A stretch of DNA of 62,600 nucleotides, from contig CAYVXX010000004.1 in assembly GCA_964454305.1 (NCBI GenBank), positions 1 through 62,600 of the forward strand. Direction: 5' to 3'. The stretch is from an uncultured Syntrophales bacterium (GTDB lineage: Bacteria > Desulfobacterota > Syntrophia > Syntrophales > JADFWA01). The notes beneath the pieces are model-generated. The model saw only the letters and a list, made by a program, of their open reading frames with translations, searched no databases and was not told the DNA's origin. The translations under genes were made by a program, and so were the position numbers. Positions 5,807-59,008 of this stretch are shown piece after piece. The stretch's first letter is position 1. Each line of letters starts with the position of its first letter.

Positions 5807-6586
5807 TTGAGAGGACATCTTGTGAGTATCTTTTTTATGGTTTTGGGTGCCTGTGTTGGAAGTTTTTTGAATGTATGTATATGTCGAATTTCTGAAGGAA
5901 AATCTATTATATTTCCTAAATCCTTCTGTCCAAACTGTTTGCATCCGATCAGGTTTTATGACAATATACCGATAATAAGTTATCTTGTTTTGAGGGGGAG
6001 GTGCAGGGATTGTCACAAAAAAATTTCATATCGCTATCCTGTGGTTGAGCTGATAACTGCCCTGTTGTCGTTGTTTCTATTCTGGAAGTATGGTTTTTCT
6101 TTTCAATATCTCTTTGCATTCATATTCACCTGTGCCCTTATCGTTATAACATTTATAGACCTGGATCATCAGATTATTCCAGATGTAATTACACTGCCGG
6201 GGATTCCGCTCTTTTTCCTGTTAACGTTCTTTTTTATAGATGTCTCTTTTCTTGACTCCATTTTGGGGATTTTAATTGGTGGAGGGGGTTTTTATCTGAT
6301 TGCCATTGTATATCAGTTTGTAACGAAAAGAGAGGGGATTGGCGGGGGCGATATAAAGCTTATGGCGATGCTCGGGGCATTTTTGGGCTGGAAATCCCTT
6401 CTGTTTATACTTCTTGTGAGTTCCCTTCTCGGATCAATTGTAGGTATTTCCATGATGGTTGTACACGGGAAGGATTTGAAATATGCAGTTCCCTTTGGGC
6501 CATTTTTAGCTACTGCCTCTGTGGCCTATATATTCTTCGGTGATTACTTTATGAATTTTTTGATCTTGAGGCATGGTATTTATTAG
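5807..6586 (+). CDS. pilD: Prepilin peptidase / N-methyltransferase (A24 family)
   Basis: CxxC...CxxC zinc motif (CPNC, CRDC), multiple TM segments, catalytic GGGDIKLMAMLG. Confidence 0.9.
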   Translation: MRGHLVSIFFMVLGACVGSFLNVCICRISEGKSIIFPKSFCPNCLHPIRFYDNIPIISYLVLRGRCRDCHKKISYRYPVVELITALLSLFLFWKYGFSFQYLFAFIFTCALIVITFIDLDHQIIPDVITLPGIPLFFLLTFFFIDVSFLDSILGILIGGGGFYLIAIVYQFVTKREGIGGGDIKLMAMLGAFLGWKSLLFILLVSSLLGSIVGISMMVVHGKDLKYAVPFGPFLATASVAYIFFGDYFMNFLILRHGIY

Positions 6587-6593
6587 GTATAAT

Positions 6594-7079
6594 ATGAAAA
6601 AAATCACTGAAAAGGGCTTCACTCTCGTGGAGCTCATGATAACAGTTGCAATTATAGGGATTATGACGCTTATTGCGGTGCCGGCCTTTCAACGACACGC
6701 CATAAACGCAAATCTGAAATCTGCTGCAAGGGATATCGCGTCTGATTTTCTGTTGCTGAAGGGAAGGGCGGTATCTGAAAATACCGAATACCAGATAGAT
6801 TTTGACGCAACAAATGACAATTACGAAATTAAAAGGTGGGATACCGGTACCTCTGTCTTTGTGTCTCTTGCCCCTGCTCAGGTTAAAGGCGTAAAGAACT
6901 TTGGGGAGGATATAAATATTACAAGTGCGGTTTTTGGGGCTGGTAATAAAGCTACTTTTAAAACAAGAGGAACTGTTACGCCCCTGGGGACTGTGCAACT
7001 GACAAACAGCAGAAATTCCACTGCAACTATAACCGTAAACATTACAGGAAGGACCTATGTCAGTTTTATCATGCAATAA
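6594..7079 (+). CDS. Type IV minor pilin, GspH/FimT-like
   Basis: Prepilin leader MKKITEKG|FTLVELM with Glu+5. The start was moved downstream of the pilD stop. Confidence 0.8.
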   Translation: MKKITEKGFTLVELMITVAIIGIMTLIAVPAFQRHAINANLKSAARDIASDFLLLKGRAVSENTEYQIDFDATNDNYEIKRWDTGTSVFVSLAPAQVKGVKNFGEDINITSAVFGAGNKATFKTRGTVTPLGTVQLTNSRNSTATITVNITGRTYVSFIMQ

Positions 7080-12941: not shown

Positions 12942-13005
12942 AGTATAAGAAAGGTAAGCTGTCAGCTATCAGCTATCAGCATTCAGCAAAGGGAAAGGCT
13001 TTTAG

Positions 13006-15306: not shown

Positions 15307-15436
15307 TGACAGTCTCGTAAAAAGTCTCAAAATGTGTTATTTGTCATGCTGAACTTGTTTCAGCATCTAATTCAGTAAGTTAGAGACCCTGAAATAAATT
15401 CAGGGTGACAAAAGCTGACTTTTTACGAAGCCATCA
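15307..15436. mobile_element. Family-B MITE-like element, copy B1
   Basis: Inverted termini TGACAGTCTCGTAAAAAGTC (15307-15326) and GACTTTTTACGAAGCCATCA (15417-15436). Two internal hairpins. No ORF. Confidence 0.5.
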
Positions 15437-15484
15437 ACTTTAAACTTTGAACTTTGAACTCGAAACTTTAAACAGGTATTCATC

Positions 15485-19490: not shown

Positions 19491-19834
19491 ATAGAGTTGA
19501 GATGCTTGAAAAAGAACAGATTAGATTGGATATTCCTTATTTTAAATCAGGTGATACCGTTAAGGTGTATGCGAAAATTGTCGAAGGCCAGAAAGAGAGA
19601 ATACAGGTTTTTGAAGGAGTTGTAATAAGGAAAAGAGGGGGAAGTAACCGGGCAACTTTTACTGTGAGGAAAATGTCATATGGTGTAGGCGTTGAAAGAA
19701 CTTTTCCCCTTCATTCGCCTATAATAGACAGGGTCGAGGTTGTAAGAAAAGGAAAAGTTAGGCGTTCCAGGCTGTACTATCTGAGAGGACTTAGAGGCAA
19801 GAAGGCAAGGATAAAAGAAGCCGATAGAAGGTAA
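19487..19834 (+). CDS. rplS: 50S ribosomal protein L19
   Basis: 115 aa. [16 protein letters not shown]...[10 protein letters not shown] is the canonical L19 sequence. Confidence 0.97.
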
Positions 19835-19836
19835 GA

Positions 19837-20084
19837 AAGTGAGCTAAAATGTCTAAAGTGAACTAAAGTGCCTAAAGTTGACAGTCTCGTAAAAAGTCTC
19901 CTTAGCTTGTCATTTCGAGTGAAACGAGAAACCCTTTAAACGTAACATACTTAAAAGATAAGATTTCTCCCTATAGTCGAAATGACATATTCGTTGAATT
20001 TCACTTTTTACGAGCGCATCAAAGTTAAGGGGTTTGATAATTTTAACTTTAGCTCACTTTAGGCACTTCAAACTTTAGGCACTT
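19837..20084. repeat. Composite palindrome: family-C word arms flanking family-B element B2 (19879-20021)
   Basis: The left arm (19837-19878) and right arm (20045-20084) are inverted arrays of xxxTAAAGT words. B2 termini: TGACAGTCTCGTAAAAAGTC and CACTTTTTACGAGCGCATCA. Confidence 0.6.
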
Positions 20085-21073: not shown

Positions 21074-21263
21074 TGACAAGTTCGTAAAAAGTTTTTTCAG
21101 AGCGAATTTAAGCATTTTGGGAAAAAGATGCTGATAGTGACCGGCGTTAAGAAAATCTAACTGTTTGAGTGCATAAGCACGAGTTTTAGATTTTTAGCCG
21201 GGCAATAACAGCATTCCCAAAATGGTTCTGAGCGAAGAAAAGTGACTTTTTACGAGCGTATGA
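21074..21263. mobile_element. Family-B MITE-like element, copy B3
   Basis: Termini TGACAAGTTCGTAAAAAGT and GACTTTTTACGAGCGTATGA. Internal 10-bp inverted repeat CATTTTGGGA/TCCCAAAATG. No ORF. Confidence 0.5.
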
Positions 21264-21282
21264 AACCGTTAAACTTGAAACC

Positions 21283-22172: not shown

Positions 22173-22357
22173 TTGAACTGAACAGCGAGCGCCTTCCCCG
22201 CTGCTTGCGGCGGGGTTATCGAGCGAACACACAAAATATTTTCCTCACCCCGATAAACGGGATAAGTACGTTAACGAATTTGCTTTCTACCAGAAAGCAA
22301 ATTCTAACTCACTAAACAGTTGGAGATTCCCCGCAACTTGTTGCGGGGAGCTTCAAT
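22173..22357 (+). repeat. Family-A composite hairpin element, long form (A1)
   Basis: 5' box TTGAACTGAACAGCGAGCG. Hairpin CCCCGC-TGCTTGCG-GCGGGG. 13-bp stem 22276-22304. 3' module GGAGATT-CCCCGCAACTTGTTGCGGGG-AGCTTCAAT. Confidence 0.7.
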
Positions 22358-26118: not shown

Positions 26119-26190
26119 TTGAACTGAACAGCGAGCGCATTATTCTTCGAATTACTTCGTTCCCCGTAGCTTGCTGCGGGGAGCTTCAAT
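26119..26190 (+). repeat. Family-A element, minimal form (A2)
   Basis: TTGAACTGAACAGCGAGCG, then a 26-nt linker, then CCCCGTAGCTTGCTGCGGGG-AGCTTCAAT. Confidence 0.65.
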
Positions 26191-26570
26191 TAACTAAATA
26201 TTTCGAGGGGTATCTCCTCAAAGTGAGACCTTTTTCAGAAGTCTCGACAGGTGGTGAGTTGAAAGGGGCATCAGCAAGTTTAAAATCAGCGATGCCCTTT
26301 ATTTAAATAAAGGTCTAATCAGGTGCCTGTCTGATGAAGAAGGGTCTTTGTCTGCAATATTTGCGTTTTTTGTGTATGTGCGGGTATCGCCCCAAACAAT
26401 AAGATTTAGTTTGAAATGTGAAATGAATTGAAGTGCCTAAAGTTAAGGATTTTAATCAGTCAACTTTAGCTTACTTTGTACCCTTTTTGAACTTTTTTGG
26501 TTATCCGCCTCAGGCAGATCCGTATCAGGTTTAAAATGTATGTGCATTTTTCTGGAATGGGACATTTTTC

Positions 26571-28487
26571 ATGAAGAAAATCAAAATTAGCTTACCTGAT
26601 GGTTCGGTAGTATCTCACGCTGAAGGGCTGACCGTTAAAGAGATAATTGCGTCATGGAAGGAAGATTTGTTGACTTCTGCAGTAGCGGCAAAAGTTAATG
26701 ATGAAATGGTGGATTTAAGTTATTCTGTGAAGGAAGATTCCTCTATAATAGTTATTGATGTTAACTCGGGAGAGGGTTTAAGCACACTCAGACACAGCAT
26801 ATCCCATGTGATGGCTCAGGCTGTACAGGATATCTTCGAAAGTGTTAAAGTTAGCATAGGGCCTGCTATTGATGATGGTTTTTACTATGATTTTGAGTAC
26901 TCCGAATCCTTTACTCCTGAGGACCTGGTAAAGATTGAAAAAAGAATGAGAGAAATTATATCTGCCGATCATCCCTTTACGCGTGAAGAGGTCTCGAAAG
27001 AAGAGGCTATCTCACTATTTAAGGAGAAAGGGGAAGCATACAAGGTTGAGCTGTTGAATGATATGCCGGAGGATGTGGTGGAAGTGAGTCTTTACAGACA
27101 GGACGGATTTACGGATTTGTGTCGTGGACCACATATACCATCCACAGGTATGATTAAGGCGTTCAAGCTTACAGGTGTTGCAGGTGCTTACTGGCGTGGT
27201 GATGAGAAAAACAAAATGCTACAGCGCATCTATGGCACGGGTTTTGCGACTGAGGAGGAACTTGAGGAGTATCTTTTAATACTTGAAGAGGCAAAACGGA
27301 GAGATCACAGGAAATTGGGAAGAGAGTTAGACCTTTTTCAGATGAATGAAGAAGTTGGGCCGGGTATGATTATATTTCATCCGAAGGGGGCTATGTTAAG
27401 GACAATTATTGAGGATTGGGAAAGAAAGGAACACCTTAAGCGGGGGTATGAAATTGTTGTAGGGCCTCAGATGTTAAAGGAGGAGCTCTGGAAGAAATCA
27501 GGACATTTTGACCATTACCGGGAAAACATGTATTTTACCGAGGTTGAGGGTCAAGTTTATGGCATAAAGCCTATGAACTGCCTTTCTCACATGTTGATAT
27601 ACAAGTCCAAGATAAGGAGTTACAGGGATTTACCGGTCAGATATTTTGAACTTGGTACCGTTCACCGCCATGAAAAAACAGGGGTTCTCCACGGTTTAAT
27701 GAGGGCTCGTCAATTTACGCAGGATGATGCACATATATTATGTACACCCGAGCAGTTGAATTCTGAGATTAAGGGCGTTGTCGATTTTGTCGATTTTGCG
27801 ATGAATGTTTTCAAATTTGAATATGAAGTTGAACTCAGCACAAGACCGGGGGACTCGATAGGTTCCGATGAGGATTGGGATCTGGCTACTTCAGCGTTGG
27901 AACATGCGCTTAAAGACAAAAACATGTCTTATGATATTAACGAAGGAGACGGGGCTTTTTATGGTCCAAAGATAGACTTTAAGCTGAAGGATGCCTTGAA
28001 AAGAAGCTGGCAATGTGCGACAATACAATGCGATTTTACCCTGCCTGACAGGTTTGATCTCAACTATATCGGGTCTGATGGTGAGAAGCATAGACCGGTT
28101 ATGCTGCACAGGGTTATTCTGGGCGCCATAGAAAGGTTTATGGGGGTGTTAATTGAACATTATGTTGGTGCCTTTCCAGTATGGTTGTCACCGGTACAGG
28201 CGGTTTTGCTTACAGTTACTGAGAAACAGATACCCTACGGTGAAAAAGTTTACAGGCAACTTGTCGATGCTGGTATCCGGCTGGAAAGGGGTTTCAGAAA
28301 CGAAAAATTAGGATATAAGATAAGGGAAGCACAAATGCAAAAAATCCCTTATATGTTGGTAATCGGTGACAAAGAGGTCGATTCTGAGAGTGTTTCTCCC
28401 AGACAGAGGGATGGAAAAAATCTTGGATCAATCAGCGTGGCTGATTTTGTTTCCCTGGTTAGAGAAAAGTGTAGTAAGTATGAATAA
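26571..28487 (+). CDS. thrS: Threonine--tRNA ligase
   Basis: 638 aa. TGS domain, editing domain, class II core (RVRGFTQDDAH-like [11 protein letters not shown]). Confidence 0.97.
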
Positions 28488-28488
28488 A

Positions 28489-28573
28489 GAGTGCCTAAAG
28501 TGAGCTAAAGTGCCTAAAGTTATGCTTATAAATAACTTTAGATCACTTTAGACACTTTAAACTTTAGTCACTC
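28489..28573. repeat. Family-C word palindrome (C4) between thrS and infC
   Basis: The left arm (28489-28523) contains AGTGCCTAAAGT twice. The right arm (28532-28573) is the imperfect inverse. It is followed by AATTTTT and the infC RBS. Confidence 0.65.
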
Positions 28574-29383: not shown

Positions 29384-29472
29384 AAGTGCCTAAAGTTTGA
29401 AGTGCCTAAAGTGAGCTAAAGTTATGGATAAGAATTTTCAACTTTAGTCACATTAGTTTACTCCAGTTACTT
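29384..29472. repeat. Family-C word palindrome (C5) between rpmI and rplT
   Basis: The left arm contains AGTGCCTAAAGT twice (29385, 29401). The right arm CAACTTTAGTCACATTAGTTTACTCCAGTTACTT is the imperfect inverse. Confidence 0.6.
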
Positions 29473-34117: not shown

Positions 34118-34120
34118 AGA

Positions 34121-34251
34121 GCATTCAGCTATCAGCCGCCAGCTTTCAGCAAAAAAAACAAAAGATCAATCGGATAGGGGTAGCCCCGTATGGTTACCCC
34201 TACTTTTTTATTTTGCTGATCGCTGAATGCTGAATGCTGAATGCTGAATGC
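34121..34251. repeat. Family-D heptamer-word palindrome enclosing a terminator
   Basis: Left arm GCATTCAGC TATCAGC CGCCAGC TTTCAGC. The right arm includes (GCTGAAT)x4 at 34222-34249. Confidence 0.65.
34176..34214. terminator. Bidirectional rho-independent terminator between the merR-like and PxxKW genes
   Basis: AGGGGTA...TACCCCT stem with an A-run upstream (34150-34158) and TTTTTTATTTT downstream. Confidence 0.6.
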
Positions 34252-41628: not shown

Positions 41629-41735
41629 CTATACCTCCTGAAAATAAATTACGAGCGTGTTTTCCGCGACTTGCTGTGCGGACTTGATCTTACCGAGGAA
41701 CACACTTAGCAAGCTCCGACTTTCGACGAAGAGCT

Positions 41736-42927: not shown

Positions 42928-42937
42928 GAATTGCCCT

Positions 42938-43021
42938 TTGAACTGAACAGCGAGCGAATAAAATCAACAAATTTCATTAACAGTCGGAGATTCCACGCAG
43001 CTTGCTGCGGGGAGCTTCAAT
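42938..43021 (+). repeat. Family-A element, short form (A3)
   Basis: TTGAACTGAACAGCGAGCG...CAGTCGGAGATT-CCACGCAGCTTGCTGCGGGG-AGCTTCAAT. Confidence 0.65.
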
Positions 43022-43950: not shown

Positions 43951-44074
43951 ATTGAATCTCCCCGCCGCAAGCAGCAGGGAATGAAGTAATTGAAGTTCCC
44001 CCGCAACAAGTTACGGGGGAGCTCCGACTGTTAAGGAAAATATTTATTTTTTATTCGCTCACTGTTCAGTTCAA
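43951..44074 (-). repeat. Family-A element, inverted copy with two tandem 3' hairpin modules (A5)
   Basis: The reverse complement reads TTGAACTGAACAGTGAGCG...GGAGCT-CCCCCGTAACTTGTTGCGGGGG-AACTTCAAT-TACTTCATT-CCCTGCTGCTTGCGGCGGGG-AGATTCAAT. Confidence 0.65.
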
Positions 44075-46439: not shown

Positions 46440-46472
46440 GGGTTCCGCCCTTTGGGCGGGGAACTTCAAAAT
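46440..46472 (+). repeat. Solo family-A-like hairpin plus tail (A7)
   Basis: TCCGCCC-TTT-GGGCGGGGA followed by ACTTCAAAAT. Confidence 0.45.
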
Positions 46473-47210: not shown

Positions 47211-47401
47211 TTTGAACTGAACAGCAAGCGAATAAAAAACAAACAATTTCCTTACCCCGATAAACGGGATAAGTCCCGCTAAAGGGGATAAATCCCACTA
47301 AAGGGGATAAATGCGTTAACGAAATTATTTTCTGGCAGAAAATAATTTCTAACTTACTAAACAGTCGGAGATTCCCCGCAACTTGTTGCGGGAAGCTTCA
47401 A
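47211..47401 (+). repeat. Family-A composite hairpin element, long form (A4)
   Basis: TTGAACTGAACAGCAAGCG. Three tandem units of about 19 nt (CCCnnTAAAnGGGATAAnT). 13-bp stem 47320-47348. GGAGATT-CCCCGCAACTTGTTGCGGGA-AGCTTCAAT. Confidence 0.7.
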
Positions 47402-47480
47402 TTTGTACAATTTTCTGTTGATAATATTTAAAATCTGCTTTAATATAATAAAGTTTATAAAAGCCGAAGAAGACAGGAAG

Positions 47481-58926: not shown

Positions 58927-59008
58927 TTGAACCCATGTGATGGGGAAACAAATTATTTGACCGGGAACGCACCCGCAGGCCCCGCCCTGTGGGCGGGGAG
59001 ATTCACAT
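58927..59008 (+). repeat. Divergent family-A element (A6)
   Basis: TTGAAC...CCCCGCCC-TGT-GGGCGGGG-AGATTCACAT. Confidence 0.45.

Follow-up and report, generated by a model that had tools for sequence, protein, structure and literature searches.

In the window, i.e., the whole stretch of 62,600 nucleotides that was analysed, a short hairpin-forming sequence, referred to here as family A, recurs among the genes of an uncultured Syntrophales bacterium, which raises the question of what kind of element it is and how its copies came to lie where they do. Our best reading is that family A is a high-copy, mosaic family of PATE-like elements (palindrome-associated transposable elements), and we give a probability of roughly two in three to the explanation that these are non-autonomous elements of the IS200/IS605 type, which are moved as single-stranded DNA by a Y1 transposase that acts in trans. 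In uncultured syntrophic Syntrophales, a visible fraction of the intergenic DNA consists of this family, which breaks assemblies, as is seen from the many copies at contig ends, and rewrites gene ends and leaders, with one copy supplying a stop codon and another lying 10 nt before a start codon.

Copies in the window and the anatomy of the element

The earlier note had described a dispersed family with a 5' box and a 3' hairpin with a tail, and all of the copies that it listed, together with a relic, were recovered, against none expected in shuffled sequence. Scanning the window with the 19-nt box, TTGAACTGAACAGCGAGCG, gave three exact matches on the plus strand (22173, 26119 and 42938) and two with one mismatch each (47212 on the plus strand and 44074-44056 on the minus strand), while zero matches were expected in shuffled sequence. 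The 20-nt hairpin, CCCCGCAA-CTTG-TTGCGGGG, and its variants were found at five places (22329, 26162, 42993 and 47374 on the plus strand and 44018-43999 on the minus strand), and the shuffles again put the chance expectation at zero. The tail GGGGARCTTCAAT lies directly 3' of every hairpin and is also found at 43951-43963 (minus strand), in the second module of copy A5, and at 46458-46470, in the solo copy A7. The window thus holds five box-bearing copies, one solo hairpin-tail, one divergent copy and one relic, and the density of family A is about one per 9 kb. According to Pfam, the genes around the copies are ordinary chromosomal ones, i.e., those for a tetrapyrrole-methylase-family protein, threonyl-tRNA synthetase, a NagZ-like hydrolase, YjbQ, a low-molecular-weight phosphatase and a type II/IV secretion ATPase.

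The long form is represented by A1 (22173-22357, plus strand), in which the target TTGAA occupies 22173-22177, the element proper 22178-22356 and the following T 22357; its left and right hairpins lie at 22196-22215 and 22329-22348, its tail, AGCTTCAA, at 22349-22356 and additional internal stem-loops at 22240-22320. A2 (26119-26190, plus strand), a 71-nt form with tRNA-Val 81 nt upstream, comprises the box, CATTATTCTTCGAATTACTTCGTT, the hairpin (26162-26181) and the tail (26182-26189). The 83-nt form that has no left hairpin is seen in A3 (42938-43021, plus strand; right hairpin 42993-43012, tail 43013-43020), which is antisense to yjbQ (UPF0047) and 10 nt upstream of its start codon. On the minus strand, A5 (43951-44074) combines the 83-nt form with a second hairpin-tail unit; its hairpins lie at 44018-43999 and 43979-43960, and its tails end at 43990 and 43952. 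A4 (47212-47402, plus strand), which begins at 47212 and not at the previously given 47211, is a 190-nt form with the right hairpin at 47374-47393 and the tail at 47394-47401, and within the loop of its TTTCC/GGAGA stem there are three small hairpins (47254-47311) and one long hairpin (47321-47349). A7 (46440-46470, plus strand) is a solo right-end module composed of the hairpin CCGCCC-TTT-GGGCGG and then GGAACTTCAA, and the related genome L194 carries a 51-nt element that shares its right junction. A6 (58927-59008, plus strand), which had been listed as a divergent copy, is present as described and was assigned to a related subfamily: it begins with TTGAAC, has a different hairpin, CCCCGCC-CTGTG-GGCGGGG (58980-58998), and its tail, AGATTCAC (58999-59006), ends in TCAC. 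The tetranucleotide before its hairpin, CAGG, has G as its last base, and the last base of its tail is C. The decayed relic (41651-41689, plus strand) retains GCGAGCG, a degenerate CTTG-loop hairpin and a remnant of the tail, and four related genomes have retained it in the same place, upstream of a glycosyltransferase gene.

The mobile unit is CTGAACAGCGAGCG...GCTTCAA and carries no gene. Its left arm consists of 18 nt and a GC hairpin and its right arm of a GC hairpin and the 8-nt tail; the modules are in direct orientation, and the two arms are distinct. With a caret marking each boundary of the element, the commonest long form reads TTGAA^CTGAACAGCGAGCG-CATT-(CCCCGCTG CTTG CGGCGGGG)-TTAGCGAGCGAATAAAAAATAAAAAATTTCCTTAACAGTCGGAGATT-(CCCCGCAA CTTG TTGCGGGG)-AGCTTCAA^T. 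The copies fall into mosaic length classes of 51, 71, 83, about 118 and 136-298 nt. In the 51-nt form, which is the commonest class, a single hairpin is fused to the tail, and in the 83-nt form the segment between the two AGCGAGCG repeats is absent. In the longer forms, small hairpins have been added to the loop of the TTTCC/GGAGA stem (A1 and A4), or another structured module is present (loci L017 and L102), and some hairpins hold a second hairpin nested in their loop. The L017 (minus strand, about 6530-6808) and L102 (2375-2620) copies belong to a 271-nt variant whose extra internal module is predicted to form several stems (GTAGCGTGGGGCC...GGGGCAACGCTAC), and pieces of this module are also present in L019, L058 and L094. 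A near-perfect palindrome at L003 4759-4825, in which the box and its reverse complement enclose a reversed hairpin, is the sole inverted arrangement among about 120 copies.

The module sets at the A4 site differ between the window and its closest relative, L192 (phosphatase 94% identical), and decayed relics lie beside fresh copies in neighbouring intergenic regions, which indicates that modules are gained, lost or exchanged after insertion. The length classes would have arisen by the loss of sequence between repeated motifs, either AGCGAGCG or the two hairpins, and by the addition of small hairpin modules in the loops, and exchange among the copies probably contributed as well.

The window also contains other repeats. 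A second dispersed, intergenic family, unrelated to family A, consists of tandem 9-10-nt units (AAAGTGCCT or AAAGTGAGCT) at 70-125, 19826-19881, 26421-26456, 28487-28533 and 29398-29434. A third family has the inverted ends TGACAAGTTCGTAAAAAGTC ... GACTTTTTACGAGTGCATCAA, as in a classical MITE, and was found at 15307-15438, 19879-20023 and 21074-21265 in the window, at about 11.6 kb in L192 and at 15125-15453 in L197, with the last two copies lying at sites that are empty in the window. Intergenic runs of CAGC(T/A)(A/T)T-like heptamers (AGCTGTCAGCTATCAGCTATCAGC...) were observed at 12957-12990 and 34120-34153.

Distribution, insertion sites and target

Copies also exist beyond the window, a count that the earlier note had left to a wider search. 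Scanning one genome per species with the pattern TTGAACTGAACAGYRAGCG returned at least 107 stretches; about ten of the matches listed were chance matches in unrelated genomes, and the remainder came from 12 metagenome-assembled genomes (MAGs) that are labelled as Syntrophales, Syntrophaceae, Syntrophobacterales, Desulfobacterales, Deltaproteobacteria or Thermodesulfobacteriota, one of them a complete Syntrophales chromosome (OY761459.1). The assemblies GCA_964650385.1 and GCA_964652795.1 are likewise among the carriers. A thirteenth carrier, GCA_030655775.1, was found through synteny, which brings the number to at least 13 assemblies. The 80 copies that were measured occupy 78 distinct sites with unrelated flanks. 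Outside the search pattern, the parts of the element are almost invariant, with a mean column identity of 90% across 21 copies of the 118-nt form, whereas orthologous genes of the carrier genomes are only 65-70% identical at the DNA level. Family A is shared by several genus-level lineages.

The 80 metagenome loci around NagZ-like relatives (51-72% identity to the protein of the window) contained one divergent copy only and therefore provided no empty sites, and the same-species contigs L108-L111 showed no presence/absence polymorphism. All of the 26 box matches in viral contigs look like chance, with the rest of the element absent. A literature search with the box, hairpin and tail sequences returned one unrelated paper that contains the box string by chance, and the literature on Syntrophus and REP sequences offered nothing relevant; family A appears to be undescribed.

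Three related genomes are syntenic with the window over 38-54 kb. The A4 site is filled in the window and in L192, the filled site reading GTTT-TTGAA^CTGAACAG...GCTTCAA^T-TTGTAC, and it is empty in L194, which reads GTTT-TTGAA^T-TTATAC. A3 is present in the window only, and the same site has no copy in the three related genomes. Additionally, L197 carries a copy flanked by ATTTGAA^ and ^TATAC, the corresponding sequence of the window and L192 being ATTTGAG^CATAC, and L041 is filled where L008 reads TTTAA^T. Only the A4 pair is exact, as the L197 and L041 pairs are 1-2 bases off beside the junction. A duplication of the target was absent from every filled/empty pair that was compared.

The gene end at A5 is informative about the left boundary. 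In the coding sequence of the glycoside hydrolase family 3 (NagZ-like) gene, L194 reads AAGTTGAA^AAAGTAG and the window AAATTGAA^CTGAACAG, i.e., ...AAG TTG AA^A AAG TAG compared with ...AAA TTG AA^C TGA, with A5 supplying the last codon and the stop (AAC TGA) in place of the AAA AAG TAG of L194. Since the L194 gene keeps TTGAA without the element, TTGAA is ancestral target DNA, and the first base of the element is the one that follows. The 5-bp terminal inverted repeat TTGAA...TTCAA that had been proposed was thus a misreading, because the left TTGAA is target DNA outside the element; TTCAA is its right end. The statement that all copies are intergenic has to be amended for A5, whose 5' box contains the stop codon of the NagZ-like gene (44068-44066). 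At yjbQ (42928-43021), A3 lies between a conserved promoter-like region and the ATG and replaces the GAAGGA ribosome-binding region of the three relatives.

Insertion takes place immediately 3' of TTGAA, and no sequence conservation was seen upstream of it. The base after TTCAA was T in 57, A in 18 and C in five of the 80 copies and never G. Among copies that were found incidentally, the first T of TTGAA was variable and TGAA was mostly kept.

Strand-specific hairpins and their pairing with the cleavage sites

Both hairpins share CCCCG...CGGGG stems and a CTTG loop on the same (top) strand. In the alignment of 21 copies, they were 95% and 98% paired, and the double-sided changes in them exceeded those in all 500 shuffles. 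The loop was CTTG in 98 of 119 hairpins. Of the non-Watson-Crick positions in these 119 hairpins, 91 were G·T and 19 were A·C or C·A, an excess from which it follows that the complementary strand would fold worse. This strand specificity fits RNA or single-stranded DNA alike. Insertion at the replication fork would be expected to bias the top strand towards the lagging-strand template. The locally G-rich strand was the top strand of the element in 43 copies and the other strand in 28, a weak trend that is not significant (p = 0.096), and all of the copies in the window except A5 lie on the strongly G-rich plus strand. For the window itself, the GC skew of the plus strand is 0.18-0.29 in 5-kb windows between 15001 and 40000 and about 0 beyond 40 kb.

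The arrangement resembles that of IS608, for which two papers (PMC3201880, PMC5934647) give the geometry in detail. The IS608 transposase binds subterminal hairpins of the top strand. The left cut is made 3' of TTAC, 19 nt 5' of the left hairpin and outside the IS, and the right cut 3' of TCAA, 10 nt 3' of the right hairpin; the cleavage sites (CL TTAC and CR TCAA) are recognised by pairing with the guides (GL AAAG and GR GAAT), the 4 nt 5' of each hairpin (PMC3201880, PMC5934647). At the right end the pairs described are T-4:A-34 and C-3:G-35, and at the left end they are T-4:A+17 and T-3:A+16. A-10 and G-9, the two bases after the right hairpin, form base triplets (PMC3201880, PMC5934647). 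The A that is the third base of the IS608 guide inserts into the protein. The rule derived from these published pairs is C1:G2 and C2:G1; from the four tetranucleotides we infer that C4 pairs with G4 and that C3 is unpaired.

Applied to family A, the rule predicts TGNA for the left guide, CATT, and TGAA is observed in the flank, 18 nt 5' of the left hairpin. For the right guide, GATT, it predicts TCNA, and the element ends in TCAA, 8 nt 3' of the right hairpin, which is directly followed by AG. The guides differ by one base (C or G), and this difference mirrors that between the sites at the pairing base (G or C). Moreover, in the A6-type subfamily the last base of each of the five guides is G and each of the five tails has TCAC at its end, and two of these guides, GAAG and GAGG, fit TCAC at all three pairs. 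Three independent guide/site pairs thus covary at two positions, which is the strongest argument for a mechanism of the IS200/IS605 type. The third base of the guide is T in family A compared with A in IS608. In the 51-nt single-hairpin class, the guide CATT fits TGAA and mismatches TCAA at one pair; these copies may be immobile deletion products, or the pairing rule may be looser in family A. The 71-nt class may conceivably be a nested mini-element, as its guide, CGTT, is preceded by CGAA, but its arm measures just 10 nt and no covariation was seen among its variants.

The likeness to the ends of IS200/IS605 elements and their non-autonomous derivatives, which the earlier note had suggested, is therefore borne out by the filled and empty sites without duplication, the strand-specific hairpins and the pairing according to the IS608 rule. 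That a rule from IS608 predicts, for a distant family, both the target and the right end, and the covariation between subfamilies as well, amounts to a natural test of it. Because the rule holds for family A, such ends can be recognised from sequence alone.

The enzyme, the alternatives and the known systems

For family A we infer an enzyme and a single-stranded circle. In the proposed mechanism, one DNA strand would fold into the two hairpins, and a small HUH tyrosine (Y1) transposase, encoded elsewhere in the genome, would bind both of them. The cuts would be set by the 4 nt before each hairpin, CATT pairing with TGAA of the left flank and GATT with TCAA of the right end. The element would then exit as a single-stranded circle and re-insert 3' of another TTGAA, with a preference for T as the next base and without duplicating the target.

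The enzyme was sought in 1.47 Mb of sequence (about 8 kb around each box match), in which neither a Y1 transposase nor a copy with an ORF between both ends was found, and tblastn with IS200, IS608 and RAYT queries (approximate sequences) yielded nothing below E = 0.3. Clustering the ORFs of the first 107 loci revealed housekeeping paralogues as the only recurrent families and no transposase, and the copies without a nearby tail were truncations, contig ends or chance matches in unrelated genomes rather than long elements. The window comes from the JGI metagenome 3300028168 and belongs to the metagenome contig Ga0268277_1000054, and the 10 kb upstream of it contained no transposase domain and no copies. 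The junction of a circle between the right and left ends, TTCAA^CTGAACAG, was not found in the collected loci, and neither tnpB nor iscB was seen beside any copy.

One alternative, which we regard as unlikely, is that family A consists of palindromes of the REP type that a domesticated Y1 transposase (RAYT), present in single copy, maintains and disperses, and that possibly have roles for the host in mRNA stability or DNA structure. RAYTs are relatives of the IS200/IS605 TnpA. The high copy number, as judged by the density in the window, the BIME-like mosaic architecture, the strand-specific hairpins and the lack of a transposase adjoining any copy would all suit this explanation, as would the strong conservation of the element where orthologous genes have diverged. 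REPs, however, are single palindromes with a 5' GTAG-type motif and usually occur as inverted pairs. In family A no such tetranucleotide is conserved 5' of the palindrome, the modules are direct and not inverted except in the L003 variant, and the left and right arms are distinct, with spacing and guide pairing like those of IS608.

A structured small RNA or a cis-regulatory RNA, possibly a guide (omega) RNA for TnpB or IscB, that is transcribed from the hairpin-forming strand had been called equally possible, and we now consider it highly unlikely. An RNA would be consistent with the G·U-type asymmetry and with the stable CUUG-type loop, there is some covariation in the hairpins, and the folds are more stable than those of shuffled sequences (z = -3.9 and -5.3 for the 119-nt form and A4, respectively). 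In IS200/IS605 elements, in addition, omega RNAs are encoded by the right end (PMC8612924). The orientation relative to the flanking genes is, however, mixed (22 copies ++, i.e., sense, 16 --, i.e., antisense, 14 convergent and 13 divergent), copies lie within the 3' end of a gene (A5) and antisense in a 5' leader (A3), and the sites differ between related genomes. There is also no Rfam match: at gathering thresholds the whole window returned tRNA-Val only, and A4 returned only chance-level matches at E up to 10. Promoter- and terminator-like sites were no commoner than in shuffled sequence, with none at the main hairpins, and the Pfam-checked neighbours in the window, among which there is no tnpB or iscB, are housekeeping genes.

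Still less probable, to a degree that leaves it very doubtful, is a classical cut-and-paste MITE moved by a DDE transposase, or an element of a site-specific recombinase with a TTNAAT core. The outermost five bases can be read as an inverted repeat, TTGAA/TTCAA, and the TTGAAT-like hexamer at three empty sites could also be explained as a recombinase core. However, the filled/empty pairs have no target duplication, the inverted repeat would be just 5 bp with its left half in ancestral flanking DNA, and the G·T asymmetry reveals that one of the strands matters, whereas the transposition of double-stranded DNA would make no such demand. An intrinsic terminator was ruled out, because no T-run follows the main hairpins.

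Two more far-reaching readings are conceivable, and together we rate them as rather unlikely. Either no conventional multi-copy IS shares these ends and one domesticated Y1 enzyme maintains hundreds of IS608-like arms across several genera, as an intermediate between selfish IS200/IS605 elements and REP/RAYT systems, or the right ends are dispersed omega RNA genes for a TnpB acting in trans, with their own flank as the guide and TTGAA as the target-adjacent motif. The identity of the enzyme would distinguish parasites of an active IS from persistence by means of a domesticated (RAYT-like) transposase.

Among the known systems, the BOX elements of Streptococcus pneumoniae are modular and intergenic, their variable internal modules being enclosed by conserved 5' and 3' boxes. 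Family A has this same arrangement, although the sequences are unrelated and guide/cleavage logic of the IS200/IS605 type is not described for BOX. With the REP/BIME sequences and RAYTs of Enterobacteria and Pseudomonas, it shares abundant, mosaic intergenic hairpins, the absence of an adjacent transposase and, in our proposal, a related Y1 class of enzyme; it differs from REPs in its direct modules with left and right arms and its defined insertion target. PATEs are short, gene-less and multi-copy and retain only ends of the IS200/IS605 type, and family A agrees with them in all of these features. The described PATEs share their ends with identifiable resident IS copies, whereas no parent IS was found for family A in the 1.47 Mb, and family A is kept across several genus-level lineages. 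Compared with IS608 of Helicobacter pylori, a member of IS200/IS605, its elements measure only 51-298 nt and contain no tnpA or tnpB, its interior is mosaic, its copy number is high and many copies have a single hairpin; its target is T-TGAA instead of TTAC and its right arm 8 nt instead of 10. Family A and IS608 both have two similar subterminal hairpins on one strand, a left cleavage site outside the element and about 18-19 nt 5' of the left hairpin, a right site TCAA a few nt 3' of a right hairpin that is followed by AG, pairing between guides and cleavage sites, and insertion 3' of the target without its duplication.
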